A stretch of DNA of 64,000 nt from Candidatus Poribacteria bacterium (GCA_965262955.1 CBDHGE010000001.1:3103637-3167636), one strand, 5' to 3'; numbered from the stretch's first letter, positions 8,888 to 27,942 are shown. Translations and numbers: made by a program. Notes: a model not told the origin generated them from the sequence alone.

Positions 8888-9691
8888 ATGAAATTTATGA
8901 CCCAATTGATCTGTGTAGGATTTAGTCTCATTTTAAGCCTATGCCTATTTCTCACACCTGCCTTCGCCCAGCTTGGGATGGATACCTTAGTGGGGCTTTG
9001 GCTGTTTGATGAAGGTAGCGGCGACACCGCTATGGATTCTTCCGACAGTGGGCTTGATGCAACCTTGGTAGGGAATCCGAGCTGGGTAAGTGGCGTATTT
9101 GGTTCAGGACTGGAGCTTGACGGTTCAGGTGCCTACGTTGAGGTCCCCGCACACGTAAATCCGACTGATGCAATCACCGTCTCAATCTGGGTGAAAAGTA
9201 TGACGGATGATTGGAATCAGCACGGTTGGATGGTTGAAAAGCGGAATGCATATATTATCCATCCAAACCAAGGGACCAAAAACGTTTCCTGGCCCATCTG
9301 TAACAACGGTTGTTGGAACAAACCCGGTGGCTGGCGCGATGGCGAAGTCGGACCCGATGACATCACCGAATGGCATCTTTACACCGCTACTTTTGACAGC
9401 GCAAGCGGTGAGTGGAACATCTATATCGACGGTGTAGCAGAAAGCACAATGGAAATCAATACCGATCCAATTGATGCTGACGATGGTCCGGTTTTTATCG
9501 GTCGGGATACCTGTTGTGATGGCAGATTTGGCGATGCAGTCATCGATGAAGTCGCTATCTTCAACGTTGCCTTGACCGAAAGTGAAATCCAGATGATGAT
9601 GGATAAAGGGCTTTCAGCATTGCTCCTGACCCCTGTTGAACCCGAAGACAAGCTCTCTACGACTTGGGCAAATGTGAAACAACAGTATTAA
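8888..9691 (+). CDS. Secreted LamG-like (Laminin_G_3 / concanavalin-A-like jellyroll) protein, paralog 1
   Basis: Signal peptide, LVGLWLFDEGSGDTAMDSS...GNPSWVSGVFGSGLELDGSGAYVEVP (canonical Laminin_G_3 opening), C-terminal ...LSTTWANVKQQY. RBS AGGAGG 7 nt before the ATG. Confidence 0.7.
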   Translation: MKFMTQLICVGFSLILSLCLFLTPAFAQLGMDTLVGLWLFDEGSGDTAMDSSDSGLDATLVGNPSWVSGVFGSGLELDGSGAYVEVPAHVNPTDAITVSIWVKSMTDDWNQHGWMVEKRNAYIIHPNQGTKNVSWPICNNGCWNKPGGWRDGEVGPDDITEWHLYTATFDSASGEWNIYIDGVAESTMEINTDPIDADDGPVFIGRDTCCDGRFGDAVIDEVAIFNVALTESEIQMMMDKGLSALLLTPVEPEDKLSTTWANVKQQY

Positions 9692-9698
9692 TCGCATT

Positions 9699-9736
9699 CA
9701 GTAGGCGAGCAACGTTTCTTCCCTGCTCGCCTACTG
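9699..9736 (+). terminator. Strong hairpin downstream of LamG-1 (13-bp perfect stem CAGTAGGCGAGCA/TGCTCGCCTACTG, 12-nt loop). Likely a terminator or attenuator.
   Basis: Perfect inverted repeat read directly. No clear T-run follows. Confidence 0.4.
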
Positions 9737-9915
9737 CACTATCAACTTTCCTGCCCTATAGGAACCTCTCCACACATCCACAATTTCCTTGACATCAATT
9801 CACCCCTATGCCATACTGAACAACGAAGTTCGGGCTTGATATCCGATTGTTGATATCAAGCCGTAGCTTGCGCATACTGCTTAGATTTCGTCTTGAGAAA
9901 GGAACATTTATTATT

Positions 9916-10974
9916 ATGGAACCCGTAAAAGTGGGTGTGATTGGGTGTGGTGTCATCGGAAGCAGACATCTCAGTATTGCCTCGGATGCACCGCACATTG
10001 AGTTGGTCGCTGCGGCAGACCTGATTGAGGCGAACAGAACCACTGCTGCTGAACGCTTCAATCCACCCAAAATGTATACAAACGACATTGACCTGCTTGA
10101 TGACGATGAAGTTGAAGCAGTTGTCTTGGCATTTCCAACGCAGTACCGGACTGAGGTAGCCTTACGGGCGTTTGAGAGAGGTAAGCATGTTCTGATTGAA
10201 AAACCGATCGCCATGAACGCTGCTGAAGTTGAGAAACTCATCGCTGCGCGAGGTGATTTAGTCTCAGGATGCTGCTCATCCCGAAAGCGTTTTACACCAT
10301 CCGCGCAGCTCGCAACGCAACTGATTACCACTGGTGGTTTGGGCGAGCTGCGGACCGTCTACTGCCGCGCTATCATAGGAGCAAGGGAAAAACCGGATAC
10401 ACCGCGCCCTGCTTGGCGATTAATCAAGGCACTCAACGGAGGCGGCATCCTCGTTAACTGGGGATGTTACGATCTTGATTATCTACTCGGCATTACAGGC
10501 TGGAACCTCAAACCGCAAACTGTATTTGCCCAGACGTGGACCGTGCCTCAAGTCTTTAAATCGCACATCGCTCCCGGTTCCGATGCCGAAACGCACTACA
10601 CCGCACTCATCCGATGCGAAGGCGATATTGTTCTAAGCGTGGAACGAGGCGAGTTTATGACAATGCATTCGCATGCAGATTGGGAAATTATCGGCACTGA
10701 AGGCTCTCTTAAACTAAATATGCAGGATGGAAAACCGGACAGCGTCATCCACAATCGCACGACTACAGAAGGCGGCGTAGAGTCTACATCCCTCTCTGAC
10801 GCAGATGAAACGACTGAGGCACACCATAGCACGCCGTTGTCCGATTTCGCTGCCGCTATCCGAGAAAAACGACAACCCTCAACGAGTTTGGAAAAAGCCC
10901 TTGTTGTTCAGAAAATAACCGATGCTATTTACACTTCCGCAGAGACAGGAAAAGCTGTGGAGATAGGAGAATGA
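9916..10974 (+). CDS. Gfo/Idh/MocA-family NAD(P)-dependent oxidoreductase
   Basis: VKVGVIGCGVIGSRHL Rossmann motif, EKPIAMN, C-terminal alpha/beta domain. Start moved to ATG 9916 (AAAGGA RBS). The ORF track start 9847 adds 23 non-conserved residues. Confidence 0.85.
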   Translation: MEPVKVGVIGCGVIGSRHLSIASDAPHIELVAAADLIEANRTTAAERFNPPKMYTNDIDLLDDDEVEAVVLAFPTQYRTEVALRAFERGKHVLIEKPIAMNAAEVEKLIAARGDLVSGCCSSRKRFTPSAQLATQLITTGGLGELRTVYCRAIIGAREKPDTPRPAWRLIKALNGGGILVNWGCYDLDYLLGITGWNLKPQTVFAQTWTVPQVFKSHIAPGSDAETHYTALIRCEGDIVLSVERGEFMTMHSHADWEIIGTEGSLKLNMQDGKPDSVIHNRTTTEGGVESTSLSDADETTEAHHSTPLSDFAAAIREKRQPSTSLEKALVVQKITDAIYTSAETGKAVEIGE

Positions 10975-10976
10975 AC

Positions 10977-11735
10977 ATGAAATTCCGTATATTCGTAGGA
11001 TTGTGCACTATTTGCCTTAGTCTCATTATCGTCTCACTCGGCAATGCTGAAATTAATCTTGACGATTTTGCTGGTATATGGCTCTTTGATGAAGGTAAAG
11101 GTCAGGTTGTTAAAGATTTTACTGAGAATGGGAATGATGGTGAATTTGACGGACCCAAATGGATAGATGGGCAGTTCGGCAAGGCACTGGAATTCGATGG
11201 AAGCCCTAAGTATGTCATTATTGAACATAACGACCTTTTCAACTTCGAGGATGATGACTTTACTGTCGGATGTTGGATGAACTCGGAGAATAAAGATGCT
11301 TACGTCGTCATTAAACGGAACGGTGGTGCCGGTTTTTGGGCGATGAGTTCAAGCATTGATAGAGACACCGGCTTTTTCATCTTTGAGGGTGGTGGACAAC
11401 ACATTGACGATGGTAAAACCGATATTGTTGGAGGAGGTTGGCATCACACTGTCGCTGTTCGTAAAGACGGTGTTATTTCCCTATATGTAGATGGCGAGCT
11501 GGAAACCGAGCGAAACGTCGGCGCGAATATGGATAATCCCGCTATTCTGAAATTCGGTGGTTGGGGAAGTGAGAACCTCATCGGCGGATTGGATGAAGTA
11601 TTTATCACGAAAAAGGGCGTAGCGTTGGAAGAAGAGGATATCCAACTCCTTGCCGAGGAAGGTTGGGAAGTCGCCTTAGATGTTTCCGCAAAAGGAAAAA
11701 TGGCAACCACGTGGGCAAGGCTAAAAGCCCAATAA
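10977..11735 (+). CDS. Secreted LamG-like (Laminin_G_3) protein, paralog 2
   Basis: LDDFAGIWLFDEGKGQVVKDFTENGNDGEFDGPKWIDGQFGKALEFDGSPKYV..., C-terminal MATTWARLKAQ. The TGA of the upstream oxidoreductase (10972..10974) overlaps the first ATG (10971). The second ATG (10977) has better AGGAGA spacing. Translationally coupled to the oxidoreductase. Confidence 0.7.
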   Translation: MKFRIFVGLCTICLSLIIVSLGNAEINLDDFAGIWLFDEGKGQVVKDFTENGNDGEFDGPKWIDGQFGKALEFDGSPKYVIIEHNDLFNFEDDDFTVGCWMNSENKDAYVVIKRNGGAGFWAMSSSIDRDTGFFIFEGGGQHIDDGKTDIVGGGWHHTVAVRKDGVISLYVDGELETERNVGANMDNPAILKFGGWGSENLIGGLDEVFITKKGVALEEEDIQLLAEEGWEVALDVSAKGKMATTWARLKAQ

Positions 11736-11789
11736 ACGACATCTATACCTTAAGGCGCGCCTTACACACGCCTATAAAAATCGGCAAAT

Positions 11790-12776
11790 CTATACAAAAA
11801 ATTTCTCAGCAACTTGGGTTATAAAATTTTTGCCCATAACGCGATAGCCCTCCGCATCGGGGTGTAGGTCATCCGGGAGCAGGTGGACGTAGTCCTCCCC
11901 AAATACACTTAACCCGTCAACGTAATGGACCTGATTATCGCCGTGTCCCTGAAGGGCTTCGGCGGCGGCTTGTACCTCTTCACGCATTCCTTTCAGATGG
12001 AACCCTACGGCGTTTGCAGTCTCCTCCCGCGGTGGTGAACAAATAGGCGACATCAACACGAGTGGGATGTCTGGATGCTTCTCACGAACAATCTGAACTG
12101 CACCGATAATCGCTGGACGGAACGCTCGCGGTCCTAAACTCGACGCACCTTGGATATTAATACCGACACACATTGAGATGTAATCAGCAGATAGGTCACG
12201 AATCATCCGTGCTACCATGGCATCGAGATGACACTGCCCACCGTAACCAAGACAAGTTAAATTCAACCCACGTTCACGTGCAACAATCGCTGGCCACGTC
12301 TGCGTCGCCGATGCTGCTGTTCGGCACTGCGTGATGGAGCTGCCGTAAGTCACCCACCGTTTTCGTGGGTCTGTAACCGAGTCCAAAGTTGCCCCGTCAT
12401 CAATTTCTAAGCTGCGGAGTTGAAAACTTCCGAATTGCGGCAGCCACAACTCAATCAGTTTTTCCCCATCGGACAAATTGTCAAAAACAAAACTGTCTTT
12501 TTGAGTCAGGTCGAGCGATGCTACGACTTCACCATCACAACAAAGGTCAAGTATACCGCTTTCATTTTGTGGAACGATATTGCCTGAAACCTGTGTCGTA
12601 TTGCTCCGAAAACTAATGCGAACCCCTGCAGGCATTGCCGAGCGTTCAAGTAACGGCTCAGGGAATAGGACATGCATCGGGTGCGGTGTGCGCCACGGCA
12701 TCACCCAGTCTTCAGTTTTTTGTAAGGAGATGCTCCCCTGCCAAGTCAATTGGGGTGCATCCGGCTTCAATTGCAT
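11790..12776 (-). CDS. SGNH/GDSL-like hydrolase (putative carbohydrate esterase) with N-terminal beta-sandwich region
   Basis: WVTYGSSITQC (GDSx-type nucleophile block), ...YISMCVGINIQG..., PDDLHPDAEGY (catalytic D-x-x-H block). Confidence 0.55.
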   Translation of the reverse strand: MQLKPDAPQLTWQGSISLQKTEDWVMPWRTPHPMHVLFPEPLLERSAMPAGVRISFRSNTTQVSGNIVPQNESGILDLCCDGEVVASLDLTQKDSFVFDNLSDGEKLIELWLPQFGSFQLRSLEIDDGATLDSVTDPRKRWVTYGSSITQCRTAASATQTWPAIVARERGLNLTCLGYGGQCHLDAMVARMIRDLSADYISMCVGINIQGASSLGPRAFRPAIIGAVQIVREKHPDIPLVLMSPICSPPREETANAVGFHLKGMREEVQAAAEALQGHGDNQVHYVDGLSVFGEDYVHLLPDDLHPDAEGYRVMGKNFITQVAEKFFV

Positions 12777-12803
12777 TATATTCTCCTCTACGCATAGGGG
12801 TTG

Positions 12804-13616
12804 TTACATCGCATCGACTATAGCGCGCAGTTGCCGTACGCCTCTCAACATATCTTCTGGTTGTCCCCAGTGTTCGATACTCGCCGAACCCGTGAACCCG
12901 TCAGCAGCCAGAGTTTCCAGCAGCTCCTCATAGTGCAATCCTGTATCACCAATAGGATTCAGATTTTTCTCACTGTTTGGTTTTACATGCACATGCCGCA
13001 CCAATCCCTTAATATGTGCGTATCCTTCCGGTAATGGATTTTCTCCACAATGTAACCCGTTATTGACATCCCAACAGGAGGTAAGTGCTGGGCTATTTCC
13101 GAGCGCGTTGATGACAGCACGTGTCTCTTCACACGTTCCGGCAAGACATGCACTTTCGTTTTCAAAGCAGAGCGTAACATCCCCACTCTCTGCAACCGGG
13201 ACGACAAGTGAGAGTTTTTCCACGATACGTTCCATGTAGTCATTAATGTCTGGGCGCGGCGCGCCTTTAATACGGCGATTCGGATTCCAAAATGTAAATC
13301 CACGAATAACTTGGGTATCAAACGCTTGTGCCAGTGTCACCATCCGATCAAAGTACTTTCGGTGTTGATCATATTCTTCGGGATCGTCAATTGAGCATTT
13401 CCCAAAAGGGGACCCAACACTCGCAACCCGGACGTTGTAAGTGCTGAGCACATCCTGAACGCGTTTGACATCGTCATCGTCAATTTCGGTTACGTGTTTG
13501 CCCCAAACACCGCCGCGTATTTCAACAGTGTTGGCACCGGCTTCAACGCCGAGTTTAATGGCTTCCTCAAAATCGGTTTTAGAAACTTCGTCAGCAAAAT
13601 AGCAGACGTCAATCAT
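12804..13616 (-). CDS. Sugar phosphate isomerase/epimerase (xylose-isomerase-like TIM barrel)
   Basis: MIDVCYFADEVSKTDFEEAIKLGVEAGANTVEIRG..., family-typical metal-ligand His/Glu/Asp pattern. Confidence 0.8.
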   Translation of the reverse strand: MIDVCYFADEVSKTDFEEAIKLGVEAGANTVEIRGGVWGKHVTEIDDDDVKRVQDVLSTYNVRVASVGSPFGKCSIDDPEEYDQHRKYFDRMVTLAQAFDTQVIRGFTFWNPNRRIKGAPRPDINDYMERIVEKLSLVVPVAESGDVTLCFENESACLAGTCEETRAVINALGNSPALTSCWDVNNGLHCGENPLPEGYAHIKGLVRHVHVKPNSEKNLNPIGDTGLHYEELLETLAADGFTGSASIEHWGQPEDMLRGVRQLRAIVDAM

Positions 13617-13639
13617 ATCAAATAGACTCCTTTGGCAAT

Positions 13640-14281
13640 TTACAGTTCTTTTAGTTCTGCGAGAATATGATCAGGACCGGTGCGAGTTCCAAACGTATCC
13701 AGGAATTTTGATACGACACGCCCTTCCTGATTGATAATGTAGGTTGCTGGACGTGCTATATCCGTGTCGCTCGGGTCAACGACATTGTAGGCAGCGATTA
13801 CCACCATGTCTGTATCTACGAGTAAGGGGTACGTAAGTTCAAGCGTCTTTTGTGTTGAGTCAACAACCGTCAGAGGATCGGCACTCATGGCGATCAGTGC
13901 AGCACCTTCCGCTTGAATGTCTGCATAACCAGTTTGCAACTCACCGAGTTGCAGACGACAGTTGCCTCACGTGCCTGTACGGTAGAAGACAATGACCAGT
14001 TTTTGTCCCTTGTACTGCGAAAGATTGTGGGTATTTCCCTTGCTATCTGGTAGGGAAAAATCAGGTGCAAGTGCCCCAATATCTAATCCCTCGCCCGGAG
14101 GGAGTTGTTCAGCTGCCTCCTCTGGTAATGTTATGAGATCTGTTGTTCGTTCGGCGTTGTCGCAAGCAAGACATAAGAAAATGAGAGCACTTAATAGAAA
14201 TGAGAAGCCTATTAAATTAGCCTTGTGCGAAAACAGCGATTTCAAGTTTGCCAGGTAATCGTCCATCAGTTTGAGTTCCAT
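13640..14281 (-). CDS. Selenocysteine-containing AhpC/TSA-redoxin (peroxiredoxin/thiol-disulfide oxidoreductase-like) lipoprotein. In-frame UGA (13967..13969) read as Sec.
   Basis: ORF-track fragments 13967..14281 and 13640..13939 are in the same frame. Own translation across the TGA: ...APDFSLPDSKGNTHNLSQYKGQKLVIVFYRTGT-U-GNCRLQLGELQTGYADIQAEGAALIAMSADP..., i.e. a redoxin fold with U-x-x-C in place of CxxC. N-terminal lipobox FLCLAC. SECIS-like hairpin follows the UGA. An alternative start at M6 (14266) gives an ATGA overlap with the sulfatase stop. Confidence 0.7.
13935..13953 (-). promoter_or_regulatory. Candidate bacterial SECIS hairpin for the Sec-redoxin (UGCAACUC-GGU-GAGUUGCA: 8-bp stem, G-rich apical loop, 14 nt 3' of UGA)
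   Basis: Perfect inverted repeat tgcaactcaccgagttgca on the + strand. Position and loop composition match bacterial SECIS expectations. Confidence 0.5.
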
Positions 14282-15597: not shown

Positions 15598-15600
15598 AGA

Positions 15601-16473
15601 TCAGTCCTTAGCGGGTGGAAACGGTTTCACAGGTTCATTAATTTGATTTCCTCTTGGGATAGGTTCCGGTGGAAATTGCGTGAAAATCTCACCATTCTTC
15701 ATCGCCCATCGGGCGTTGGGGAAGAAGCGTTTGTTCCTCCCAGCAATCTCTGGATTTGTCCAAACGCCAGCAACGGCAACACGACTCTGCTCACTTTTGT
15801 TTGGTGGACTGTAGTGCCACATATTACTGTGCCAAAAGACAACGTCTCCAGTCCCTAATTCAATATGGCGTACACCGTGCTTTTCGATCATCTCCTGAAC
15901 GGCTTTGCGTGGCAATTCACCGTGAATACTGTCTGGGTATAGGACGTGTTCGATAATCTCGGTTTTGTGACTGCTCGGTATAAACTGCATGCATCCGTTT
16001 TCGCGAGTTGCAGGTTCAAGTGCTACCCAGAAATTGAGAGGTTCAGTATCGCCATCTCGCCAGAGTCCGTTGTCTTGGTGCCACGGGGTTGCAGCACCTG
16101 TGCGCGCCGGTTTGAGGAAGCTACTATTGAATTTCACAATCACGTCGTCTCCCAAAAAATAGCGGGCAATGTTCAGCATGGCAGGACCGGTATGGATATT
16201 GTGCCATATCAGCGGAGATTGAACACAGAAATTAGCGAGTTTACGGTAGCGTGCGATGCGTCCTTGCGGTGAGTCCTCCATCGGGTTCATTGGATCGAAA
16301 TCGGCAAACTCGCCAGGGTTGGGCAGCATAAGCACGTTGCGAATGACGCCGCGGAGTTGTGCTGCCAAATCTTCTGAGATAACATTGCGCTCAATAAAAT
16401 AGCCTTCACTCTCATATCGCGCTTTTTGTGCAGCGGTTGGTTGCCAGTTTCGCATGAAAATGTTTCCAGTCAT
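15601..16473 (-). CDS. Phytanoyl-CoA dioxygenase (PhyH) family Fe(II)/2OG oxygenase, tandem copy A
   Basis: WHQDNGLWRDG...FWVALEPATRENGCMQFIPSSHK...VFWHSNMWHYSPPN (HxD...H facial triad). About 88% identical to 16511..17422. Likely true start is M7 (16455), by alignment with the paralog. Confidence 0.85.
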   Translation of the reverse strand: MTGNIFMRNWQPTAAQKARYESEGYFIERNVISEDLAAQLRGVIRNVLMLPNPGEFADFDPMNPMEDSPQGRIARYRKLANFCVQSPLIWHNIHTGPAMLNIARYFLGDDVIVKFNSSFLKPARTGAATPWHQDNGLWRDGDTEPLNFWVALEPATRENGCMQFIPSSHKTEIIEHVLYPDSIHGELPRKAVQEMIEKHGVRHIELGTGDVVFWHSNMWHYSPPNKSEQSRVAVAGVWTNPEIAGRNKRFFPNARWAMKNGEIFTQFPPEPIPRGNQINEPVKPFPPAKD

Positions 16474-16510
16474 TTAGACAACAACGTCTCTTTTCTTCGA
16501 TGATATAAGA

Positions 16511-17422
16511 TTAGTAGCCCTTAGCGGATGGGAACGGCTTCGGTGCTTTAGCAGTTTGATGTTCCATCTGGACAGCTTCCGGTGGAAATTGTGTGCACAC
16601 CTCACCGTTTTTCATCGCCCATCGGAAGTGTCCCCAGAAGCGTTTACTAATCTTGGTGATCTCTGGATTTGTCCAGACACCGGCAACGGCAACACGGCTC
16701 TTCTCACTCCGATTGGGTGGGCTATAATGCCACATATTACTGTGCCAAAAGACAACGTCTCCGGTACCTAACTCGATGTGATGTACACCGTGCTTTTCTA
16801 TCATCTTCCGAACCTCCTCACGCGGAAGTTCGCCGTGGATGCTATCTGGGTATAACACGTGTTCAATAATCTCAGTTTTATGGCTGCCGGGTATAAACTG
16901 CATGCATCCATTTTCTCGGGTTGCTGGCTCAAGCGGCGTCCAAAAATTGAAAGGTTCAGTTTCACCATCTCGCCAGAGTCCGTTGTCTTGATGCCACGGG
17001 GTCGCGGCACCAGTACGCGCTGGTTTAAGGAAGCAACTATTAAACTTCATGATGATATCGTCGCCAAGGAAATAACGGGCGATGTTGAGAAGGGCAGGAC
17101 CCGCAAAGGTGTTGTGCCATATCAATGGGGCTTGGACACAAAAGTTGTTAAGTTTACGGTAGCGTGCAATGCGTCCTTGTGGTGAGTCTTCCATTGGATC
17201 CATGGGATCGAAATCAACAAACTCACCCGGGTTGGGCAGCATAAGAACATTCCGAATGACACCACGGAGTTGTGCTGCCAAATCTTCTGAAATAACATTA
17301 CGAAGGATAAAATAACCTTCGTCCTCATATTGTGCTTTTTGTGCAGGCGTTGGTTCCCATCGTTCCATTGTTAATTTCCTTTGCTTCTTTGTGGGGCTGA
17401 TGCGCTTGCGATGCCTACCCAT
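16511..17422 (-). CDS. Phytanoyl-CoA dioxygenase (PhyH) family Fe(II)/2OG oxygenase, tandem copy B
   Basis: Same motifs as copy A. Probable start is MERWEPT at 17368 (AAGGA RBS). The ORF track's 17422 start adds a basic N-extension. Confidence 0.85.
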   Translation of the reverse strand: MGRHRKRISPTKKQRKLTMERWEPTPAQKAQYEDEGYFILRNVISEDLAAQLRGVIRNVLMLPNPGEFVDFDPMDPMEDSPQGRIARYRKLNNFCVQAPLIWHNTFAGPALLNIARYFLGDDIIMKFNSCFLKPARTGAATPWHQDNGLWRDGETEPFNFWTPLEPATRENGCMQFIPGSHKTEIIEHVLYPDSIHGELPREEVRKMIEKHGVHHIELGTGDVVFWHSNMWHYSPPNRSEKSRVAVAGVWTNPEITKISKRFWGHFRWAMKNGEVCTQFPPEAVQMEHQTAKAPKPFPSAKGY

Positions 17423-17544: not shown

Positions 17545-18288
17545 CTAACGATCCTTAAGTCGTCCCCACGTCGTCGTAAGTAAACCGTTTGGTGAAACAG
17601 GCAGAACCGCCTCTACACCTTCCATCAACGCTCCGATTTCTGCTTCTGTGATACCTCGATCAAAAAAGATAATCTCATCCAATCTACCAATGAATTTCTC
17701 ACCACCAAATGTACCAAACAGCAATTCCGCTGACTGGTCTACATCGCCGCCTTGTTTGGTCGTGGCTTCGAGCGTGCCGTCTACATAAAGTTGCATCTCA
17801 CTTCCATCGTAAAGTCCAACAATATGATACCACTTTTCGGGGTCAATGACGGTTTTTCCCCACACACCGCCGGTAAACCCACCACCCGACCAGATACCGA
17901 ACACATAACCTCCGGGTACTCGCTCAGTTTGTGATTGGACCTCCAATAAATAAGAGCCGTTCCGTCGAATGGCGGTATCGGAAATCCCTTTATTCATATA
18001 GACCCAAGTTGCGATGGTCATCTGATCCTTAAAGTTGAGGCTATCGGAGGGTTCAACCCTCACAACATGCGGTGGTTCAAATTCCAATGCCCCGCCGAAT
18101 TTGCCTTCTGCCCACTTTGCACCGGTAATCGCACCATCGTTCCCGTTGCCCGACGTATCCGCAGCAACTCCACCTTTACCTTCATCAAAAAGCCAAATAC
18201 CAACGGCATCGTCTAACAGTTCTGCAGAGAGTGGACTATTTACTATGCACACACCAATAACGATAGCAAACCAATATATCTGTTTCAT
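17545..18288 (-). CDS. Secreted LamG-like (Laminin_G_3) protein, paralog 3
   Basis: Signal peptide, LLDDAVGIWLFDEGKGGVAADTSGNGNDGAITGAKWAEGKFGGALEFEP..., C-terminal LTTTWGRLKDR. Confidence 0.7.
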   Translation of the reverse strand: MKQIYWFAIVIGVCIVNSPLSAELLDDAVGIWLFDEGKGGVAADTSGNGNDGAITGAKWAEGKFGGALEFEPPHVVRVEPSDSLNFKDQMTIATWVYMNKGISDTAIRRNGSYLLEVQSQTERVPGGYVFGIWSGGGFTGGVWGKTVIDPEKWYHIVGLYDGSEMQLYVDGTLEATTKQGGDVDQSAELLFGTFGGEKFIGRLDEIIFFDRGITEAEIGALMEGVEAVLPVSPNGLLTTTWGRLKDR

Positions 18289-19560: not shown

Positions 19561-20960
19561 TGTAGGTTCTGCTATACTCTTTAGACCAGTTGGCAGACAT
19601 ATCGAGCGTTGTCGCAAGGCAACGTGTCTGCCTACCCACTCGATAGGGGTTAACGGCTGGTAACTGGTACATCTTGAGAACCTACACATACAAAGTTCAG
19701 CACCATAAACGCAACCGTCATTTGCGTTCGGATACGCGTATCATCTCGCAAGTGCATAATCACTTCATAGCGTTGACGCGTCGGCACTACCGGATTTACG
19801 GATGCTGCGCAGGCTATAAGCGTGCGACCTATAACCGATTGAGTCGGCACTTGACGAAGTTGAAGAAACTCGAAAGATATGCTCACTGGCGTATCCCATA
19901 TGCTTGGGCGTTGCAAGAGTGCTTGAAACGTATTGAGTTGGGGTATCTCAACTTCTTTGAGAAGCGTGCCAAGCGTCCGCCGAAGTTCAAGTCGTGGCGA
20001 AACTACCGCTCTATGACCTTCAACGGCAATCAGGTCAAGGTTGAAACCGTATTTGAGAAGGAACGCCACAAGAGACGTGTGCCCGTTGCGAAAATACGCC
20101 TTGCTGGACGGTGGTATCGGTTCTGGTATTCTCGTGAGATAAAAGGTAATATCAAACGTATAACCGCCAAACGTGACGCACTCGGTGATTGGTATATCAG
20201 TATCACAACAGATTATGAAGGACTTACCCCCGAACCCAAGACGGGTGATGCTGCAGGGTTCGACTATGGCAACAAGACCTTTCTGACCTGTTCGGATGGC
20301 ACGAAATACGAATCGCCTGAGTTCTATAAGCAGTCTGCCAAGAAGGTAAAACAAGCCAATCGGGAGTTGTCTCGTAAGGTTAGAGGTAGCAACAATCGCA
20401 AACGTGCGAACAAGCACTATGCCCGAACCCATCGCAAGATTCAGAGACAGCGCGAAGATCACCACTGGAAACTTGCTTTGGAACTTGTCGGCAAGTTTGA
20501 CCTCTGTTTCTTTGAGGACTTGAACCTTGACGGCATGAAACGACTTTGGGGACGCAAGGTCTCTGACCTCGCCTTTGGTGAGTTCCTTGAGAAAATCCGA
20601 TGGCAAGCGAAAAAACGGGGAAAGCGCGTTGAGACGATAGGACGTTGGGAGGCGACAACGCCAGTTTGCCACAACTGCGGGCAAAAGCACCTCTTCATAG
20701 ATTTGAGTGTTCGCGATTGGTTCTGCCATAGTTGTAAAATCCATCATGACCGCGACATAAATGCGGCGATAAATATCCTCAAGGTTGGGGCATCAACCTT
20801 TGGAGGAGAGGGTATCAGACTTGCGATCGCAAGCAACCCTTGTTGATACCAGAATCCACCCGAAACGGGGGACACTTAGAATCCCCCGAATTCATTCGGG
20901 GGAGTATGTCAAGAAGAATTCGCAGCTGTATGCCCTATCAGAGCAGGCGGGCTATCGGCG
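19561..20960 (+). mobile_element. IS200/IS605-family, TnpB-only (IS1341-like) insertion element: structured left end, tnpB, and 3' hairpin-rich right end (probable omega/reRNA scaffold)
   Basis: Nested inverted repeats at 19563..19685 (GTAGGTTCT...AGAACCTAC, GACCAGTTGG...AACTGGTAC, GGCAGACA...TGTCTGCC). tnpB at 19674..20846. Downstream hairpins cccgaaacggggg and cccccgaattcattcggggg at 20855..20915. Exact boundaries not determinable from one copy. Confidence 0.6.
19674..20846 (+). CDS. tnpB: TnpB (IS605 OrfB) RuvC-like RNA-guided nuclease
   Basis: N-terminus MRTYTYKVQHHKRNRHL (TnpB-typical), RuvC blocks, C-terminal zinc finger CHNCGQKHLFIDLSVRDWFCHSCKIHHDRDINAAINI. Confidence 0.9.
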   Translation: MRTYTYKVQHHKRNRHLRSDTRIISQVHNHFIALTRRHYRIYGCCAGYKRATYNRLSRHLTKLKKLERYAHWRIPYAWALQECLKRIELGYLNFFEKRAKRPPKFKSWRNYRSMTFNGNQVKVETVFEKERHKRRVPVAKIRLAGRWYRFWYSREIKGNIKRITAKRDALGDWYISITTDYEGLTPEPKTGDAAGFDYGNKTFLTCSDGTKYESPEFYKQSAKKVKQANRELSRKVRGSNNRKRANKHYARTHRKIQRQREDHHWKLALELVGKFDLCFFEDLNLDGMKRLWGRKVSDLAFGEFLEKIRWQAKKRGKRVETIGRWEATTPVCHNCGQKHLFIDLSVRDWFCHSCKIHHDRDINAAINILKVGASTFGGEGIRLAIASNPC

Positions 20961-21470: not shown

Positions 21471-21482
21471 GGCTTAATAGGA

Positions 21483-21509
21483 GGGTGGGTTTACCCACCC
21501 TTTCTTTCT
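21483..21509 (+). terminator. Rho-independent terminator after HMA-Sec copy 1 (GGGTGGG-tta-CCCACCC + TTTCTTTCT)
   Basis: GC-rich hairpin followed by a T-rich tract. Confidence 0.6.
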
Positions 21510-21584
21510 ATATAACAAGTTGCAAGCCCCAATATAAGAGTCCGCGATCTTCAGGTCGCTACTACAAATAAGAGGTATAAACGC

Positions 21585-21944: not shown

Positions 21945-21957
21945 GCTTGAGTCCGCA

Positions 21958-21984
21958 GGGCGAGGTTGACTCGCCCTTTTTTCT
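21958..21984 (+). terminator. Rho-independent terminator after HMA-Sec copy 2 (GGGCGAG-gttga-CTCGCCC + TTTTTTCT)
   Basis: Canonical hairpin plus T-run. Confidence 0.7.
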
Positions 21985-22074
21985 ATTATACAAACGAATT
22001 CATAATGATAATGCGAGGTCCCTGCACCTCGCATTTTTATTGTCTACAAGAATTTAGAGATTGTGGTGTTCAAC

Positions 22075-22983
22075 CTACTGCTTCTTCGCGTAAAGCGGGT
22101 CGTCAAGCAGAGATTGCACTTCGTAGATTGAACCTTTTAGTTCTGCGTAAGGTTCCGGCATACGAACAGGTGCAGCGACCATACGTGGCTCATTCGTCGA
22201 TTCGCCACGGATGATGCAGTTGTTGAAAGTCTCCCAATCTGGAATGCCTTTTAGGGGCCAGGCATCTACCGCACAGTACTGGGCAAGCATTAATCGGCGC
22301 GGTTTGCTGGAGGTGTTCGGGGCAGAACCGTGCAACGCTCGGACATGATGGATCGTGATCCCACCCGCCTTCAACTCAACAGGGACAGCACCTTCTGGTG
22401 TGAAATTGGGATCTGTTACTGCACCAATAAACGCTCCGTTCTGATGGTGATCTAAAGTCGGTCCCTTGTGGGAGCCAGGAAGTATCATCAATGCACCGTT
22501 TTCCACGGTCATATCATCAATCACCACACCGACTGCGAGTAAATCGTCGTTAGTGTGCGGGTAGAATGCCCAGTCCTGATGCCATTCAACAGGACTCCCA
22601 AACTCCGGATACTTCATGTTCAATTTATGTCCATTATACCGAACCCCCGGTCCAATGAGCTGCTCCACAATGTCCAAGATTCTGGGATGTCGTAAAGCGT
22701 AATCGTAAACGACGTGGTGTAGTCCCGGATTTTTGATGCGTCGGACGCGTGGATTAGCAGGAGAATGCCCTGGCTCGAGATCAAAGATGTCAGTATGTTC
22801 CGTAACTTCTCTCGATTTTTCGACAAATTCATTGGTGACGCGTTGGAGATCCGCGACCTCTTCTGCTGTTAGGACTGCCTCAACGCCGAGATAACCGTTT
22901 TCACCATAAAAGTCAAGTTGTTCTTGCGTGAGCATTGGTTCGTCAACTCCTCTTAGCGAAATGATACTGTTATTATACGTCAA
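22075..22983 (-). CDS. PhyH-family Fe(II)/2OG dioxygenase
   Basis: WHQDWAFYPHTNDD...ALMILPGSHKGP...ITIHHVRALHGSAPN. Confidence 0.85.
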   Translation of the reverse strand: MTYNNSIISLRGVDEPMLTQEQLDFYGENGYLGVEAVLTAEEVADLQRVTNEFVEKSREVTEHTDIFDLEPGHSPANPRVRRIKNPGLHHVVYDYALRHPRILDIVEQLIGPGVRYNGHKLNMKYPEFGSPVEWHQDWAFYPHTNDDLLAVGVVIDDMTVENGALMILPGSHKGPTLDHHQNGAFIGAVTDPNFTPEGAVPVELKAGGITIHHVRALHGSAPNTSSKPRRLMLAQYCAVDAWPLKGIPDWETFNNCIIRGESTNEPRMVAAPVRMPEPYAELKGSIYEVQSLLDDPLYAKKQ

Positions 22984-22996
22984 TCCGTTAAAAATT

Positions 22997-24088
22997 TCAA
23001 CCTTTTAACAATTTCTTATAAATGTCCTCTACCTTTTGGACGTGTGTTTCAACACCGAACGCCTCTTCAGCACGTTTTCTCGCCCGTTGTCCCATGCGTC
23101 TGTTTTGTTTCGGATCCGAGGCAAGTTCCATAATCTTCTTTGCTATATCTTCCATACACTCTGACTGCATAATGTATCCCGTTACACCGTGAACAATCAT
23201 TTCAGCGGTACTACCGACTGGGGTACCAATAACGGGTTTACCAGCCGCCATCGCCTCCGCAATGACACTCCCCGCTGAAAGCGTTACAAGCAAGTCGAGT
23301 TCTTGCATTGCTTTGGGCATATCGGTACGGTGTCCTGTGAAGTGGACGACCTCTTGTAACCGATGTTTCGCTATCAACTGATGTACTTCCCGCGCATAGG
23401 CACGATGTTCTGCCGTATCGAGTACGCCACCGATGATGTGAAATTTGACCTTCTTGTTCTGTGTTGCGACCTTAGCGGCTATCTCAACAAACACTTTTTG
23501 GCGTTTGAAGGGTTCAATTCTGCCTACGATACCGACAACATATTCCTTCGAGTCCGTTGGTCCAGGAACGGGTTGAAAAGCCGATAAGTCAACACAGTTT
23601 AAGACAACATCAATCTTTTCAGCATCAATCCCTGCTTGAATCAAAGGAGTTTTACTCTGTTCCGAGATAACAATAGTCCTGTCCATCTGGTCAAACCTAT
23701 ATTTTCGCACTTGGGAGAGCGTGAGCAGCGTCCGCACGTGTGAAATGACAGGAATTTTCAGCTGCTCTCTAATATGCCGTAAGTACGGGTTAAACCAAGA
23801 ATCAGAAGTATGGATTAGCTGCGCGTTATGTGCCTTAGCGAGTGCAGTTAACTTTTTCGCAGCACTGTGCCTCGCTATCAACGATTTCACTTTTCGCCAC
23901 GGAGGAAGATTGAGTATCGCTGTGGGAATAGCAGCACACCTTAAATGCTCAGCGAAAACGCCATCATCAGGGCAAACGACAAGCGGTTGATAATGCTTTT
24001 GATTGATATTGGTAACGAGATATGCGAGTTGCTTTTCACCCCCGCCGATGCTCGAACCGCAATGGCTGAGGTAGAGTATCGGAACCAT
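22997..24088 (-). CDS. Glycosyltransferase family 4 (GT-B fold, group 1)
   Basis: VGRIEPFKRQKVFVEIAAKV..., GSVIAEAMAAGKPVIGTPVGSTAEMIVHGVTGY (EX7E-type C-terminal domain). Confidence 0.8.
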   Translation of the reverse strand: MVPILYLSHCGSSIGGGEKQLAYLVTNINQKHYQPLVVCPDDGVFAEHLRCAAIPTAILNLPPWRKVKSLIARHSAAKKLTALAKAHNAQLIHTSDSWFNPYLRHIREQLKIPVISHVRTLLTLSQVRKYRFDQMDRTIVISEQSKTPLIQAGIDAEKIDVVLNCVDLSAFQPVPGPTDSKEYVVGIVGRIEPFKRQKVFVEIAAKVATQNKKVKFHIIGGVLDTAEHRAYAREVHQLIAKHRLQEVVHFTGHRTDMPKAMQELDLLVTLSAGSVIAEAMAAGKPVIGTPVGSTAEMIVHGVTGYIMQSECMEDIAKKIMELASDPKQNRRMGQRARKRAEEAFGVETHVQKVEDIYKKLLKG

Positions 24089-24121
24089 CTATTTTTGTCA
24101 GTATGGGTGACTGTCCCGTAA

Positions 24122-25117
24122 TTATACTGGAAAATTGAGCTGCTGATCCCGGAAAACTTGGCTGACTGATCGGTGCTGGTGGACTCTCAATATGGCTTCG
24201 GAAAGAAGTGGCGCGATAGAAAGCACCTTAATTTTTCCATCTAACTGCTTTTCCGCTGGCACAGGGATTGTGTTGGTGGTGACCACCTCGCGAATTGCTG
24301 GATGACTGAGGCGTTCCAACGCCGGCCCAACTAATATGGGATGCGCGATACTCACGTAAGCAGGTTCTGCACCAGCCTCCGCCAACGCTATGGCTTGTTG
24401 ACGAATAGTGCCTCCTGTCTGTATTTCATCGTCAGTGATAATAGGGGTCTTACCCCTGACATCCCCAACAAGTTCGACGAATTTAATGCTCTGTCCATCA
24501 ACGCCTGTTCGCCGCTTGTGCATAATGGCTAACGGAAGTCCGAGAATATCAGCATATTTTTCTGCTAATTTGGCGCGGCCTGCATCAGGGGCAACGATTA
24601 CGCCATTTTCGACCTGCTTCTCGCGGAAGTAATTGGTCAAGGTCGTTAGGGCAGTCAAGTGATCCATAGGGATGTCGAAAAAGCCTTGTATCTGCGGAAC
24701 GTGTAAATCGATAGCCATGACGCGACTTGCACCAGCCGTGGTCAAGAGGTTGGCTACAAGTTTCGCGCTAATCGGTTCTCGCCCTGTCGTTTTATGATCT
24801 TGACGCGAATACCCAAAATACGGAATGATGGCAGTAATCTGACGGGCTGATGCACGTTTCATCGCGTCAATCGTGATCAGCAGTTCCATCAGGTTTTCGT
24901 TGGCAGGTTGACTTGTTGGCTGCACGACATAAATGTCCGTGCCTCGGATACTTTCCTCAATCTGAATCCGAGTTTCATCGTTAGGAAATGGACCGATCGT
25001 AATTTTACCGAGTTCAACGCCTAAAATCGCACCGATTTCTTTCGCCAACGCCGGATTCGCGCTCCCAGCGAATAGCCTGAAATCCCTACGCACTTGCTGA
25101 TCCATCGGTGTAGACAT
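24122..25117 (-). CDS. prs: Ribose-phosphate pyrophosphokinase (PRPP synthetase)
   Basis: LFAGSANPALAKEIGAILGVELGKITIGPFPNDETRIQIEESIRGTDIYVVQPTS, PRPP-binding loop VIVAPDAGRAKLA, DDEIQTGGT. Confidence 0.9.
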   Translation of the reverse strand: MSTPMDQQVRRDFRLFAGSANPALAKEIGAILGVELGKITIGPFPNDETRIQIEESIRGTDIYVVQPTSQPANENLMELLITIDAMKRASARQITAIIPYFGYSRQDHKTTGREPISAKLVANLLTTAGASRVMAIDLHVPQIQGFFDIPMDHLTALTTLTNYFREKQVENGVIVAPDAGRAKLAEKYADILGLPLAIMHKRRTGVDGQSIKFVELVGDVRGKTPIITDDEIQTGGTIRQQAIALAEAGAEPAYVSIAHPILVGPALERLSHPAIREVVTTNTIPVPAEKQLDGKIKVLSIAPLLSEAILRVHQHRSVSQVFRDQQLNFPV

Positions 25118-25217
25118 GCCAAATCCTCCTTATATGAAGTTAAATATATTTGTCACATACTACTTTACTAAAATAGGAAACTGTAAATCCTGCACCTGCT
25201 GCCGTACCTTATGTATT

Positions 25218-25529
25218 TTAAGAACTAAGAACCGTCCATAGGAAAATTAGAGCGAAAGCAAGTGCAAGGCCAATTACGGAATGACGTACCTGAACGCTTC
25301 GACTATGTGCTTTGTAATAATCTGTATAGAGGGCTGCATATTCCGGTGATTTCTCGAGTAACCGTGAAGCAGGCGGAGTCGGCTCATGGACAGAAGCGAT
25401 AAGGATTCCGAGTATATTTCCAAAAAAACCGATAAGAACCCAGCGGATCTTTCTGGCATCGGATCCCGCATCTTCTTCAGCCATCGCGTTGATTTCCGCT
25501 GTAACAGGATGCTGTTGATAGTCATTCAT
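25218..25529 (-). CDS. Hypothetical small two-TM membrane protein
   Basis: Two hydrophobic segments (WVLIGFFGNILGILIASV; VIGLALAFALIFLWTV). No family recognised. Confidence 0.3.
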   Translation of the reverse strand: MNDYQQHPVTAEINAMAEEDAGSDARKIRWVLIGFFGNILGILIASVHEPTPPASRLLEKSPEYAALYTDYYKAHSRSVQVRHSVIGLALAFALIFLWTVLSS

Positions 25530-25561
25530 TATAGAAATCTTTTTTCACACATTCTGATATT

Positions 25562-27184
25562 CTAAAAAATAAGCGATTCACCGGTTATCTCAGGCGGTTG
25601 TGCTAAACCGAGTAGGTGAAGTGCTGTCGGGGCAATATCGGCAAGTCTTCCGTCCGTACGGAGTTGTTGCCCTCTGAGTTGGTTATCGACAAGGATGAGA
25701 TCCACATCGTACGTGGTATGTGCAGTGTGAATCCCACCGGTTTCAGGATCGATCATCTGCTCACAGTTACCGTGGTCGGCAGTGACAATGAGCGCACCGT
25801 CCTTTCTAAGCACGGCATCAACGATTTTTCCTACACCGGCATCAACCGCCTCAACTGCTTTAATAGCCGCTGGAAGCGAACCTGTATGACCCACCATGTC
25901 ACCATTAGCATAATTGAGAACCATCAAGTCATATTTGTCGGAGCCGATCCGACGCAGCATCTCTGCTGTTACACCAGGTGCGGACATCTCCGGTTTCTGA
26001 TCGTAGGTAGTCACGTCACGTGGAGAGGCGATAATTTGTCGATCTTCGCCTTCATAGGGTTCATCTCGGTAGTCGTTGAAAAAAAAGGTTACGTGTGGAA
26101 ATTTTTCGGTCTCTGCACATCGGAATTGTGTTAAGCCTGACTGACTGACATAAGCACCAAGCGTGTTTTTCATTTTGGGAGGTTTTTTGACAGCCGCTTC
26201 AACGGGCATTCCTTGCTCGTACTCCGTCATTGTTACAAATTTAACGTCAAGTTTGCAATTCCGTTTAAAACCCATTTGTCGCACAACACCATCTTTTCCT
26301 TCTGCCTCAAACGGGAATTCATCCAAGCAAAAGGCTTTGGTAAGTTCACGCGGTCGGTCGCCTCGGAAATTATAGAAAACAACAGCATCTCCATCGGTAA
26401 TGCGAGGAAGTGGTTTGCCGTCACTCCCAACAACGACACTTGGGCGCACAAACTCGTCACCCTTGCGGTTATCGTCATCGGGATTGTCGTAATAGGCACG
26501 ATAGGCATCTGCAGCAGCGGAAACGTAGTTATCAACGCCTTCAGTTAAAAGGCGATATGCTACTTCAACGCGTTCCCAACGGTCGTCCCTGTCCATCGCA
26601 TAGTAGCGACCGATAACAGATGCGATCTGTCCGATGCCGATCTCTTTCAACTTCGCTTCAATTTGTTCACAGAATTGAATTCCGAGGTCGGGCTGGCAAT
26701 CACGTCCGTCGCTGAAATTGTGAATCAAAACTTGGTCAGGCTTTAGTCCATTCGCCTTGGCAAGTCTGAGGAGTCCATAGAGGTGCTCAAGTGAGCTATG
26801 AACACCAGCGTCACTTGCCAATCCCATGAGATGGAGATGTGTTCCATGCGTTTTAACGTGAGCAATCGCATTTAAAAGGACTTCGTTCTGGTCAAACTCG
26901 CCGGAGCGGATCATTGTGCTGATACGGAGGAGTTCTTGATTCACGATGCGCCCTGCACCGATGTTCTGATGACCGACTTCACTGTTGCCGATAACCCCAG
27001 CGGGTAAACCGACATCTTCGCCAGAGGTGTGGATTTGAACGTGTGGATAGTTCTGCAGAAGCCAATCATCTGCAGGAGTCTTTGCGAGATGAACGGCATT
27101 CGCATGCTGAAATTCGGGATACGGGTTATTGCCCCAGCCGTCTCGGATGATGAGAACGACGGGGCGTTTCTGTTCGGTTGTCAT
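25562..27184 (-). CDS. gpmI: 2,3-bisphosphoglycerate-independent phosphoglycerate mutase
   Basis: VVLIIRDGWGNNP, catalytic region, LIVTADHGNCEQM. Start taken at MTTEQKRP (27184) to avoid overlap with the LamG-4 stop. Confidence 0.85.
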   Translation of the reverse strand: MTTEQKRPVVLIIRDGWGNNPYPEFQHANAVHLAKTPADDWLLQNYPHVQIHTSGEDVGLPAGVIGNSEVGHQNIGAGRIVNQELLRISTMIRSGEFDQNEVLLNAIAHVKTHGTHLHLMGLASDAGVHSSLEHLYGLLRLAKANGLKPDQVLIHNFSDGRDCQPDLGIQFCEQIEAKLKEIGIGQIASVIGRYYAMDRDDRWERVEVAYRLLTEGVDNYVSAAADAYRAYYDNPDDDNRKGDEFVRPSVVVGSDGKPLPRITDGDAVVFYNFRGDRPRELTKAFCLDEFPFEAEGKDGVVRQMGFKRNCKLDVKFVTMTEYEQGMPVEAAVKKPPKMKNTLGAYVSQSGLTQFRCAETEKFPHVTFFFNDYRDEPYEGEDRQIIASPRDVTTYDQKPEMSAPGVTAEMLRRIGSDKYDLMVLNYANGDMVGHTGSLPAAIKAVEAVDAGVGKIVDAVLRKDGALIVTADHGNCEQMIDPETGGIHTAHTTYDVDLILVDNQLRGQQLRTDGRLADIAPTALHLLGLAQPPEITGESLIF

Positions 27185-27195
27185 GCAAAATCCTT

Positions 27196-27942
27196 TTAAC
27201 GGTCTTTTATTTTCCCCCACGTTGTGGTGAGTTTACCACCTGCTTCGACATCCTGTGGTGAGTCCATAACTATTTGAATATCCGCTTCGCTCAAGGTTTT
27301 TTCATAGAGGCGAACCTCATCAATTTTACCCGGGAAGTGGTCGGTGGCGTTGCCGAGATCATCGCCACCAATCCAGAGATCTAAGGGAGAGGGGGCGATC
27401 GGCACGTTGTTGGGGGCGTCGCCTTCGAGTTTACCGTTTATATAAACCTTCATGTCCTTTCCATCAAAGGTTCCTGCGAAGTGATACCATTCGCCGACTT
27501 TCCAATCGGTTGTTGTGGATTCAGCAAAGGTGTTGTTCGGTTTGACAAGAAAGTCGATACTGCTTGCGTTACCGAAATCAAAAATGACGAAGATGGAGTT
27601 ATTTTTACTCATTAAGCGGTGACCGGTGAGAACATCGTTTGGACTGAACCACATCATAAGGGTAATATTTTCCTCGATTGCGAAGGCAGGATCATCTGCG
27701 ACAATGACATGATCGTCCTCACCGTCGAATTCGAGTGCAGTGCCGTATTTTCCCTCAACCCACTCGGGATCATCGTTAAACTCTCCATCGTGTCCATTGC
27801 CTGTAACATCTATAGCTTCTTTACCCTTACCTTCGTCAAAGGGCCAATAAGCAACAAGTCCATCTTCCGCAACGTTGGCGATACTGAGGTTAGCGATAAT
27901 GAGGAGGGAGCACAGCAAAAATACAGAGATAACTTTGGACAT
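27196..27942 (-). CDS. Secreted LamG-like (Laminin_G_3) protein, paralog 4
   Basis: Signal peptide, VAEDGLVAYWPFDEGKGKEAIDVTGNGHDGEFNDDPEWVEGKYGTALEFDGEDDHV..., C-terminal LTTTWGKIKDR. Confidence 0.7.
   Translation of the reverse strand: MSKVISVFLLCSLLIIANLSIANVAEDGLVAYWPFDEGKGKEAIDVTGNGHDGEFNDDPEWVEGKYGTALEFDGEDDHVIVADDPAFAIEENITLMMWFSPNDVLTGHRLMSKNNSIFVIFDFGNASSIDFLVKPNNTFAESTTTDWKVGEWYHFAGTFDGKDMKVYINGKLEGDAPNNVPIAPSPLDLWIGGDDLGNATDHFPGKIDEVRLYEKTLSEADIQIVMDSPQDVEAGGKLTTTWGKIKDR

Follow-up and report, generated by a model that had tools for sequence, protein, structure and literature searches.

An apparently undescribed C-terminal tag on unrelated exported proteins of Candidatus Poribacteria

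Poribacteria are dominant, uncultivated symbionts of sponges, and it is a standing question by which route their many proteins of lectin-like and eukaryote-like type arrive at the cell surface or the host. A stretch of 64,000 nucleotides from a Candidatus Poribacteria bacterium (GCA_965262955.1, CBDHGE010000001.1:3103637-3167636; hereafter the window) poses this question on a small scale, as it encodes four secreted proteins of the Laminin_G_3 family (LamG1 to LamG4) that end in a common tail and stand beside genes for oxidoreductases and other enzymes. Is the tail a piece of the LamG fold or a signal of its own, and do the LamG proteins work with the enzymes encoded next to them? Our analysis describes the tail as a separate, portable module of ~17 residues, specific to Poribacteria and carried by many unrelated exported proteins, and we consider it rather probable that the module serves as a sorting or anchoring signal. 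The tag, which is Poribacteria-wide and apparently undescribed, would then define a set of exported binding proteins that are sorted together.

Four LamG proteins and their common tail

The four open reading frames (ORFs) are located at 8888..9691 (LamG1) and 10977 (or 10971)..11735 (LamG2) on the plus strand and at 17545..18288 (LamG3) and 27196..27942 (LamG4) on the minus strand, and encode proteins of 247-267 aa. Each consists of a signal peptide, a Laminin_G_3 domain and the tail (LTPVEPEDKLSTTWANVKQQY, ALDVSAKGKMATTWARLKAQ, VLPVSPNGLLTTTWGRLKDR and PQDVEAGGKLTTTWGKIKDR for LamG1 to LamG4, respectively), as the original prediction had it. All four score well above the Pfam gathering threshold for Laminin_G_3 (51-100 bits vs 27.6; E 2e-13 to 2e-28); in LamG1, whose jellyroll carries a Cys-rich insertion, the PF13385 match (E 3.8e-24) spans residues 78-235. 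The pairwise identities among the four proteins are only 29-40%, which marks them as old paralogs. Sec-type N-termini were recognized on all four by inspection, with AlphaFold2 placing a helix at residues 2-19 or 2-26. Using ortholog and paralog alignments as the input, AlphaFold2 modelled LamG4 (mean predicted local distance difference test score, pLDDT, 84.4; predicted template modelling score, pTM, 0.81) and LamG3 (mean pLDDT 79.7, pTM 0.80) as two-sheet jellyrolls. A Foldseek search of the PDB with the LamG4 model returned lectin-type jellyrolls (E ~5e-11, template modelling score up to 0.73), including domain 4 of AbnA (PDB 5hon), the neurotoxin Hc-N domain, the lectin domain of trans-sialidase and pentraxin, all of which are binding modules. 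LamG1 to LamG4 are therefore best described as predicted Sec-exported, single-domain binding proteins of the lectin (concanavalin-like) type. AbnA domain 4 and clostridial Hc-N have the same PF13385 jellyroll and likewise bind rather than catalyse, but they have no such tag and usually belong to a larger protein. The tail aside, the four paralogs are ordinary members of a huge family. A match of LamG4 to the 3-keto-disaccharide hydrolases (DUF1080, PF06439) stayed below the cut-off (14.9 bits vs 26.8, E 0.029) and was rejected.

What sets these proteins apart is how they end. In a six-frame translation of the 64 kb, the pattern TW[AGS]x[ILVM]K has exactly four matches, each of them 2-3 residues before the stop codon of a LamG gene, and the shared tail reads K-L-x-T-T-W-[GA]-x-[ILV]-K. 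In LamG1 the tag occupies 9638..9688 (+) and reads V-E-P-E-D-K-L-S-T-T-W-A-N-V-K-Q-Q-Y, with the motif 3 aa before the stop; in LamG2 it was placed at 11685..11732 (+) from the motif match and the consensus, and in LamG3 and LamG4 at 17548..17598 (-) and 27199..27249 (-), respectively, from ortholog comparison together with the AlphaFold2 models. The tail is also kept among orthologs at 66-100% identity, in 120/120 of those listed for LamG4 and in nearly all of the 120 hits listed for LamG3. Within these sets, conservation of the tail core (V...K) matches that of the folded domain (0.79 vs 0.79 for LamG4; 0.93 vs 0.90 for LamG3), whereas the signal peptide (~0.55) and the last two residues (0.18-0.48) score much lower.

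One of the options in the original prediction was that the tail is simply the last β-strand of the jellyroll, and in concanavalin-like folds the N- and C-terminal strands are adjacent. The Pfam matches of all four proteins stop at residues 222-235, short of the tail. In the AlphaFold2 models, the jellyroll is confident up to residue 231 in LamG4 and 229 in LamG3, the last confident elements being an 'IDEV...' strand and a short helix, and the pLDDT then drops to ~40 (below 50) over the tail, residues 232-248 and 230-247, respectively. A profile of the four paralogs found 336,294 LamG_3 representatives among 1.84 billion, and the best 150 of these, giant multi-LamG proteins with together far more than 1000 LamG_3 units, served purely as a negative control for the motif. 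Most of the profile matches in these giant proteins end at position ~226-238 of 257, and the motif is absent from all 150. The tail is thus not a common property of LamG_3 domains, and it lies outside the fold.

A module on unrelated exported proteins

The pattern [LIM][TA]TTW[GA]x[LIM]K-x-x-stop was back-translated and scanned as DNA against one genome per species for 185,579 species; the loci around the matches are designated by L-numbers (L001 and so on). The scan gave at least 119 stretches, and nearly all of those listed are titled Candidatus Poribacteria. Three matches, from Woesearchaeota, Aliidongia and Clostridia, fall in ORFs of 12-24 codons and are chance matches, and the same pattern run against all of IMG/VR yielded 2 chance matches only. 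Whether the motif is kept beyond this genome had been left for checking, and the answer is that it is, on unrelated protein families as well. The carrier ORFs among the matches listed are mostly 190-350 aa long, with one of 622 aa. After removal of the signal peptide and the tail, 55/108 of these carriers cluster with LamG proteins, and the others form at least 20 clusters with no BLAST link between them. The representatives of the non-LamG clusters match Pfam families of very different folds, namely β-propellers (PD40, Kelch and the YWTD-type Ldl_recept_b), ankyrin repeats with an HExxH region, F5_F8_type_C (discoidin), HmuY, CBM_4_9, NPCBM and DUF3108_like, while several have no Pfam match at all; the carrier at L113 belongs to the 3keto-disac_hyd (DUF1080) family. 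The tag is therefore portable. A search of a 5.8-billion protein set with a profile of the tail alone returned 31 short ORFs (33-74 aa), apparently because candidates were matched by length, so that this result has no bearing on domain diversity.

The position of the module is equally constrained. In the six-frame translation of 1.0 Mb of loci, the motif stands 1-6 aa from the stop in 150/155 occurrences and 6-10 aa from it in 4 more, the remaining one being a chance match in a non-poribacterial locus; no longer domain follows the motif in any of the 155. The tag is thus strictly C-terminal. It is also tied to export: an N-terminus of the signal-peptide type (K/R followed by a hydrophobic stretch) is present on 90% of 117 carriers vs 33% of control long ORFs, indicating that the carriers leave the cytoplasm. 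Taken together, the carriers amount to at least 20 unrelated signal-peptide families found almost only in Candidatus Poribacteria. This breadth leaves little for the idea that the tail belongs to the LamG_3 jellyroll as its last strand or as some other structural part. The T-rich sequence of the tail is β-prone and about half of the carriers are LamG-like, but an identical type of tail on β-propellers, ankyrin repeats, discoidin, HmuY and carbohydrate-binding module (CBM) folds, its absence from the multi-LamG control, its place beyond the Pfam match and its unpacked state in two independent models leave this explanation scarcely any probability, and we regard it as effectively refuted.

Alignment of the carriers extended the consensus to L-[AP]-V-[ES]-[PA]-x-[GD]-K-L-[TA]-T-T-W-[GA]-x-[LI]-K-x-x-stop, which all four window proteins match. 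Positions that were free in the search pattern are conserved too, with V at -6 in 94/107, E/S at -5, P/A at -4, G/D at -2 and K/R at -1, so the module extends upstream to the L-[AP]-V element. It measures ~17 residues, and between it and the stop stand variable residues, 1-6 in number (mostly 2, rarely up to 10), the final one being mostly R, D, Q or E. The recurrence of this ending at so many gene ends could in principle be a by-product of a repeated DNA element, such as a miniature inverted-repeat transposable element, a terminator or an RNA motif. All synonymous codons are in use, however (four for Thr, six for Leu and both for Lys), the 40 nt 3' of the stop carry 0.00-0.13 bits of information, the carrier loci range from 36 to 68% GC, and the window has no Rfam hit. 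Free wobble positions and the lack of downstream conservation show that selection acts on the protein and not on the DNA, and a DNA-level repeat, refuted by these data, retains practically no probability.

Close to the index gene (within 1.5 kb), tagged genes reach a density of 5.2 per 100 kb, which falls to ~0.5 per 100 kb at distances above 3 kb. The latter figure comes from two genes only, so that the total to which it points, a few dozen tagged genes in each genome, is a very rough one. The additional tagged genes cluster side by side, as in the tandem PD40 arrays at L037, L042 and L088, and the four LamG genes of the window are such a local cluster. The arrays at these three loci and at L051 contain 3-5 PD40 (TolB-like) β-propeller paralogs each, nearly all of them tagged, one in L037 being degenerate. 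On the high-GC contig of L051 the tag occurs in a diverged form, ...MWGWLKQLxxGxRxx.

What the tag may do

That the tail could be a sorting or anchoring signal was also put forward in the original prediction, and of the readings considered it accounts best for the data, on a broader basis than had been claimed. The window encodes a TolC-like outer-membrane efflux protein, HlyD and a TonB-dependent receptor, and the envelope is therefore diderm. We envisage that Sec exports the carrier and that the signal peptide is cleaved, whereupon the flexible tag would be recognized by a common envelope component, be it a receptor, a scaffold, a translocon or a processing enzyme. This component could then bring all of these binding modules to a single site by sorting, anchoring or displaying them, with the outer membrane or the cell surface as the probable destination. 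In such a scheme the tag would act in a manner comparable to the C-terminal domains (CTDs) of the type IX secretion system (T9SS), dockerins and sortase/exosortase signals, although it is shorter and non-hydrophobic. The role itself, the destination and a dedicated partner are what we infer from the pattern; the cargo would consist mainly of small binding modules with ligand-binding or 'eukaryote-like' domains. A more far-reaching proposal is that the V-x-P-x-x-K-L-x-T-T-W-G-x-[IL]-K tag marks a new envelope sorting or surface-display system unique to Poribacteria, with its own receptor, translocon or processing enzyme and dozens of binding proteins per genome; we hold this to be a real possibility, with the balance tilted somewhat against it. 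If it were true, the cargo (LamG, PD40, Kelch, YWTD, ankyrin, discoidin and CBMs) would represent the host- and glycan-interaction surface proteome of the symbiont. A true sorting signal of this kind, short, non-hydrophobic and unfolded, would be a new type among the bacterial C-terminal sorting signals. Its occurrence on unrelated exported proteins offers a direct bioinformatic handle on the presumably co-sorted proteome, and a synthetic tag peptide would be a tractable bait for the machinery.

Several observations weigh against a sorting or anchoring role, or against its restriction to one phylum. Among the recurrent untagged neighbours at the scan loci, which were considered as candidate machinery, there is no convincing partner; they belong to abundant families (WD40/formylglycine-generating enzyme (FGE)-sulfatase-like proteins, sulfatases, a cluster with ankyrin repeats or an ASPIC/UnbV-like end, and Gfo). 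The tag has neither a transmembrane segment nor a folded domain, and no Pfam or NCBIfam model matches it even at E<=10, including TIGR04183 and the -CTERM models. Hardly any linker separates it from the folded domain, an uncommon arrangement for a surface tether, and low AlphaFold2 confidence is no proof of disorder. The hydrophobic moment of the tail at 100 and 170 degrees, corresponding to helix and strand, is the same as that of shuffled sequences, which disposes of an amphipathic helix or strand and means that the sequence offers no structural hint as to how the tag would bind. As to restriction, full-length tagged proteins occur at L020, labelled Pseudomonadota, and L036, labelled Planctomycetota, and several further loci are titled 'uncultured bacterium'; the restriction applies to the matches listed, and carriers may exist in other phyla. 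The L036 protein is 71% identical to the poribacterial protein at L040, and mis-binning or mislabelling is therefore likely.

Among the papers covered by a literature search, none has the motif strings or connects Poribacteria with a sorting signal or a LamG expansion, and a PDB sequence search with the tail profile gave insignificant internal matches only. Among known signals, the T9SS type A CTD (TIGR04183 / Por_Secre_tail) is a close parallel, being strictly C-terminal, portable and lineage-restricted, present in the same genomes, and carried by Sec-exported diderm cargo of many families, often with binding or eukaryote-like domains. The CTD, however, folds into an Ig-like domain of ~80 aa and has conserved motifs, whereas the tag has ~17 aa, is unstructured in AlphaFold2 and shows no similarity by hidden Markov model (HMM). 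We accordingly rejected the tag as a T9SS type A CTD (TIGR04183 / PF18962): there is no HMM match at E<=10, and a ~17-aa segment with pLDDT below 50 is not a β-sandwich of ~70-100 aa. Sortase, exosortase and rhombosortase signals (LPXTG, PEP-CTERM and GlyGly-CTERM) are likewise short C-terminal signals on unrelated exported proteins of one lineage, and the V-E-P element and basic end of the tag superficially recall PEP...RRR. These signals need a transmembrane helix of ~20 residues, however, whereas the tag has ~8 mildly hydrophobic residues between lysines, and its P is not invariant (61/107), nor is there an NCBIfam -CTERM match. The tag thus fails as a PEP-CTERM/exosortase signal, with no stretch of 12 or more hydrophobic residues and a V-E-P element that is only partly conserved, and as an LPXTG/sortase signal, with both motif and transmembrane helix absent. 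Dockerins resemble it as C-terminal add-ons that bring diverse small modules to a common scaffold, but they are Ca-binding duplicated folds of ~60-70 aa unrelated to the tag in sequence, and the DxNxDGxxxxxD F-hand repeat is absent from the tail. A β-signal of outer-membrane proteins was rejected as well, since the last residue is mostly R/D/Q/E and not aromatic and the carriers are soluble jellyrolls, propellers and similar proteins, and so was a cargo-loading peptide for encapsulins or microcompartments, as 90% of the carriers have signal-peptide-like N-termini and are not cytoplasmic.

Other C-terminal modules occur in the same group of bacteria and set a precedent for targeting from the C-terminus. 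Classic T9SS-type / FlgD-Ig-like CTDs stand at C-termini at L011, L090, L091 and L123 (NYPNPFNPETWIPY...ATRKMLIIK), and dockerin repeats (DVNGDGVVNILDL) at L012, L052, L063, L072, L088 and L112. With CTDs and dockerins on other poribacterial proteins, the tag is a third distinct C-terminal module in these genomes, and Poribacteria accordingly appear, judging by sequence, to use at least three such targeting modules. Among NCBIfam models, TafC (NF052521) alone matches the four LamG proteins, and only in its LamG part; LamG4 aligns with profile positions 143-369 at 62 bits vs a cut-off of 410. Haloarchaeal Tat-fimbriae are assembled by strand donation and have TafC as their tip adhesin (PMC11821415, PMC12337348); TafC thus displays a LamG-like domain on a cell-surface structure. 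The N-terminal domain of TafC is pilin-like and contains a donor strand, and the protein has a Tat signal (PMC11821415), whereas the four LamG proteins have a Sec signal and no pilin domain. We therefore rejected LamG4 as a TafC family member, since only the LamG portion matches, far below the cut-off, and the N-terminus is a Sec signal; TafC may serve as a useful analogy for displayed LamG modules, which is not the same as membership.

This analogy leads to one specific form of anchoring, in which a surface filament or scaffold would offer an acceptor domain and the tag, as a donor strand or docking peptide, would insert into it. LamG lectin modules sit at the tips of strand-donation fimbriae, as in TafC (PMC11821415, PMC12337348), to whose LamG part LamG4 is similar; each carrier is a single small binding module, as are the units that bear dockerins; and dockerins in the same genomes as well as the β-branched T-T-T run, which fits a strand, point the same way. 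No acceptor or scaffold was found, however, the amphipathicity of the tail as a strand is not above that of shuffles, and the TafC match covers the LamG domain only (62 bits vs 410) without a pilin-like domain, which makes this version unlikely. A still less probable option is that the tag serves, as a minimal or alternative signal, a putative outer-membrane export route that also handles the T9SS-type CTD proteins of Poribacteria. Poribacterial single-cell genomes encode many TIGR04183-like CTD proteins and no recognized T9SS structural genes (Kamke 2014, PMC3909097), and the four loci with CTDs named above bear out the presence of such proteins; both signals are strictly C-terminal, on Sec substrates, and have a Lys-containing basic end. 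Against a shared route speak the lack of any TIGR04183 similarity or HMM hit at E<=10, the contrast between 17 aa and a β-sandwich of ~80 aa, and the different size classes of the carriers.

The tag might also control turnover rather than location, as a C-terminal degron or a processing site for a periplasmic tail-specific protease, and its flexibility, its strictly terminal position and its high conservation from one cargo family to the next would suit such a role. Prc/Tsp-type proteases prefer non-polar C-termini, and the tag ends differently: the residues at its very end vary and are for the most part charged or polar (R, D, Q and E), which argues against a typical Prc degron as it does against an outer-membrane β-signal. 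A constitutive degron common to dozens of binding proteins would moreover be hard to explain, and we consider this account quite improbable. Donor strand or docking peptide, CTD route and degron are all special cases of, or alternatives within, recognition by a common partner.

Neighbouring genes and the enzyme-escort idea

The LamG genes had also been proposed to encode substrate-binding or escort partners of the oxidoreductases, dioxygenases and sulfatase encoded beside them, these being taken for periplasmic enzymes. The neighbours were correctly named: they comprise a Gfo/Idh/MocA oxidoreductase, two PhyH proteins, a sulfatase, an AhpC/TSA protein, a xylose-isomerase-like TIM barrel, an SGNH protein and GpmI. 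The Gfo/Idh/MocA gene (9916..10974, +) is translationally coupled to LamG2, whose start overlaps or abuts its stop codon in an ATGA overlap, and a Gfo gene is also kept upstream of the LamG2 ortholog at L094. On the other strand, gpmI (25562..27184, -), which encodes the 2,3-bisphosphoglycerate-independent phosphoglycerate mutase, lies directly downstream of LamG4 across an 11-nt gap containing AAGGA, and this pair is kept at L001-L005, L096 and L101 at 66-89% identity. As gene order around LamG2, LamG3 and LamG4 is conserved at the orthologous loci, co-transcription of Gfo with LamG2 and of LamG4 with gpmI is probably real. The Gfo gene nevertheless belongs to the surroundings of the tag system and not to the system itself, and gpmI is likewise context. 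The gaps between LamG1 and Gfo (~224 bp) and between LamG3 and PhyH (122-176 bp; 346 bp in an ortholog) are wider, and each contains a high-scoring sigma-70-like site, which is suggestive only, since the scan totals were not above those of shuffles. Of the operon links claimed for the four LamG genes, only Gfo-LamG2 and LamG4-gpmI are thus tight, and LamG1-Gfo and LamG3-PhyH are loose; a 76%-identical ortholog of LamG3 is likewise followed by PhyH and sulfatase.

Co-transcription with cytoplasmic enzymes is not peculiar to LamG genes, and it lends no support to the idea that the LamG proteins physically escort these enzymes. By inspection, Gfo, both PhyH proteins, the sulfatase and GpmI have no visible signal peptide and are therefore in another compartment than the exported LamG proteins. 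Nor are LamG-tail genes found near such enzymes more often than other tagged genes: among 106 poribacterial loci of 8 kb, an enzyme gene of the Gfo, PhyH, sulfatase or TIM type accompanies 16/54 LamG-tail genes vs 12/52 non-LamG tail genes (Fisher p=0.51). Such adjacency is largely explained by the density of the Gfo and PhyH families in poribacterial genomes, with 8 genes in this 64-kb window alone. Four of these encode PhyH proteins (15601-17422, 22075-22983 and 37544-38317, all on the minus strand; two are near-identical tandem copies) and four encode Gfo/Idh/MocA proteins (9916-10974 on the plus strand; 36501-37508, 39160-40206 and 53297-54322 on the minus strand), a density that illustrates the known poribacterial expansion of both families.

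In other bacteria, jellyrolls of the DUF1080 type act alongside Gfo/Idh/MocA and TIM-barrel enzymes in pathways for 3-keto-glycosides, and the translational coupling of Gfo and LamG2, kept at L094, together with the conserved LamG3-PhyH-sulfatase order could be taken as signs of such a partnership here. The separation of exported LamG proteins from enzymes without signal peptides, the absence of enrichment (p=0.51), the background of 8 Gfo or PhyH genes in 64 kb and the strong promoter-like sites in two of the gaps all tell against it; in addition, the conserved partner of LamG4 is the glycolytic GpmI, followed by prs and a GT4 glycosyltransferase. The escort idea is consequently very improbable, and we re-read the LamG genes as members of a tag-defined secretome and not as enzyme escorts.

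The remaining observations concern the surroundings of the LamG genes. In the region 27196-22075 (-), gpmI is followed by prs, the GT4 glycosyltransferase, a gene of unknown product and PhyH, and this order recurs at L001, L002 and L004; an exported lectin-like protein is thus probably transcribed together with core metabolic genes. The AhpC/TSA (peroxiredoxin-like) gene at 13620-14281 (-) encodes an N-terminal hydrophobic anchor and has an in-frame TGA at a T-U-G-N-C redox motif; the reading frame runs ~105 aa past this TGA and completes the domain, and from this layout the product is probably a selenocysteine protein. Its ortholog at L125 was called as two fragments. Rfam, run over the whole window at the gathering threshold, reported no selenocysteine insertion sequence (SECIS) or other RNA hit. 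Three minus-strand ORFs, at 33872-36379, 28946-29812 and 29852-30370, encode proteins of 835, 288 and 172 aa, respectively, without a Pfam match. Just upstream of LamG1, at 6481-8370 (-), lies the gene for an untagged, secreted 629-aa β-propeller repeat protein of the BNR/Ycf48-like type (PSII_BNR, Sortilin-Vps10). Between the LamG3 and LamG4 regions, an IS200/IS605-type TnpB (OrfB_IS605 with a Cas12f-like TNB domain) is encoded at 19674-20846 (+), and its gene is overlapped by a long antisense ORF at 19650-20747.

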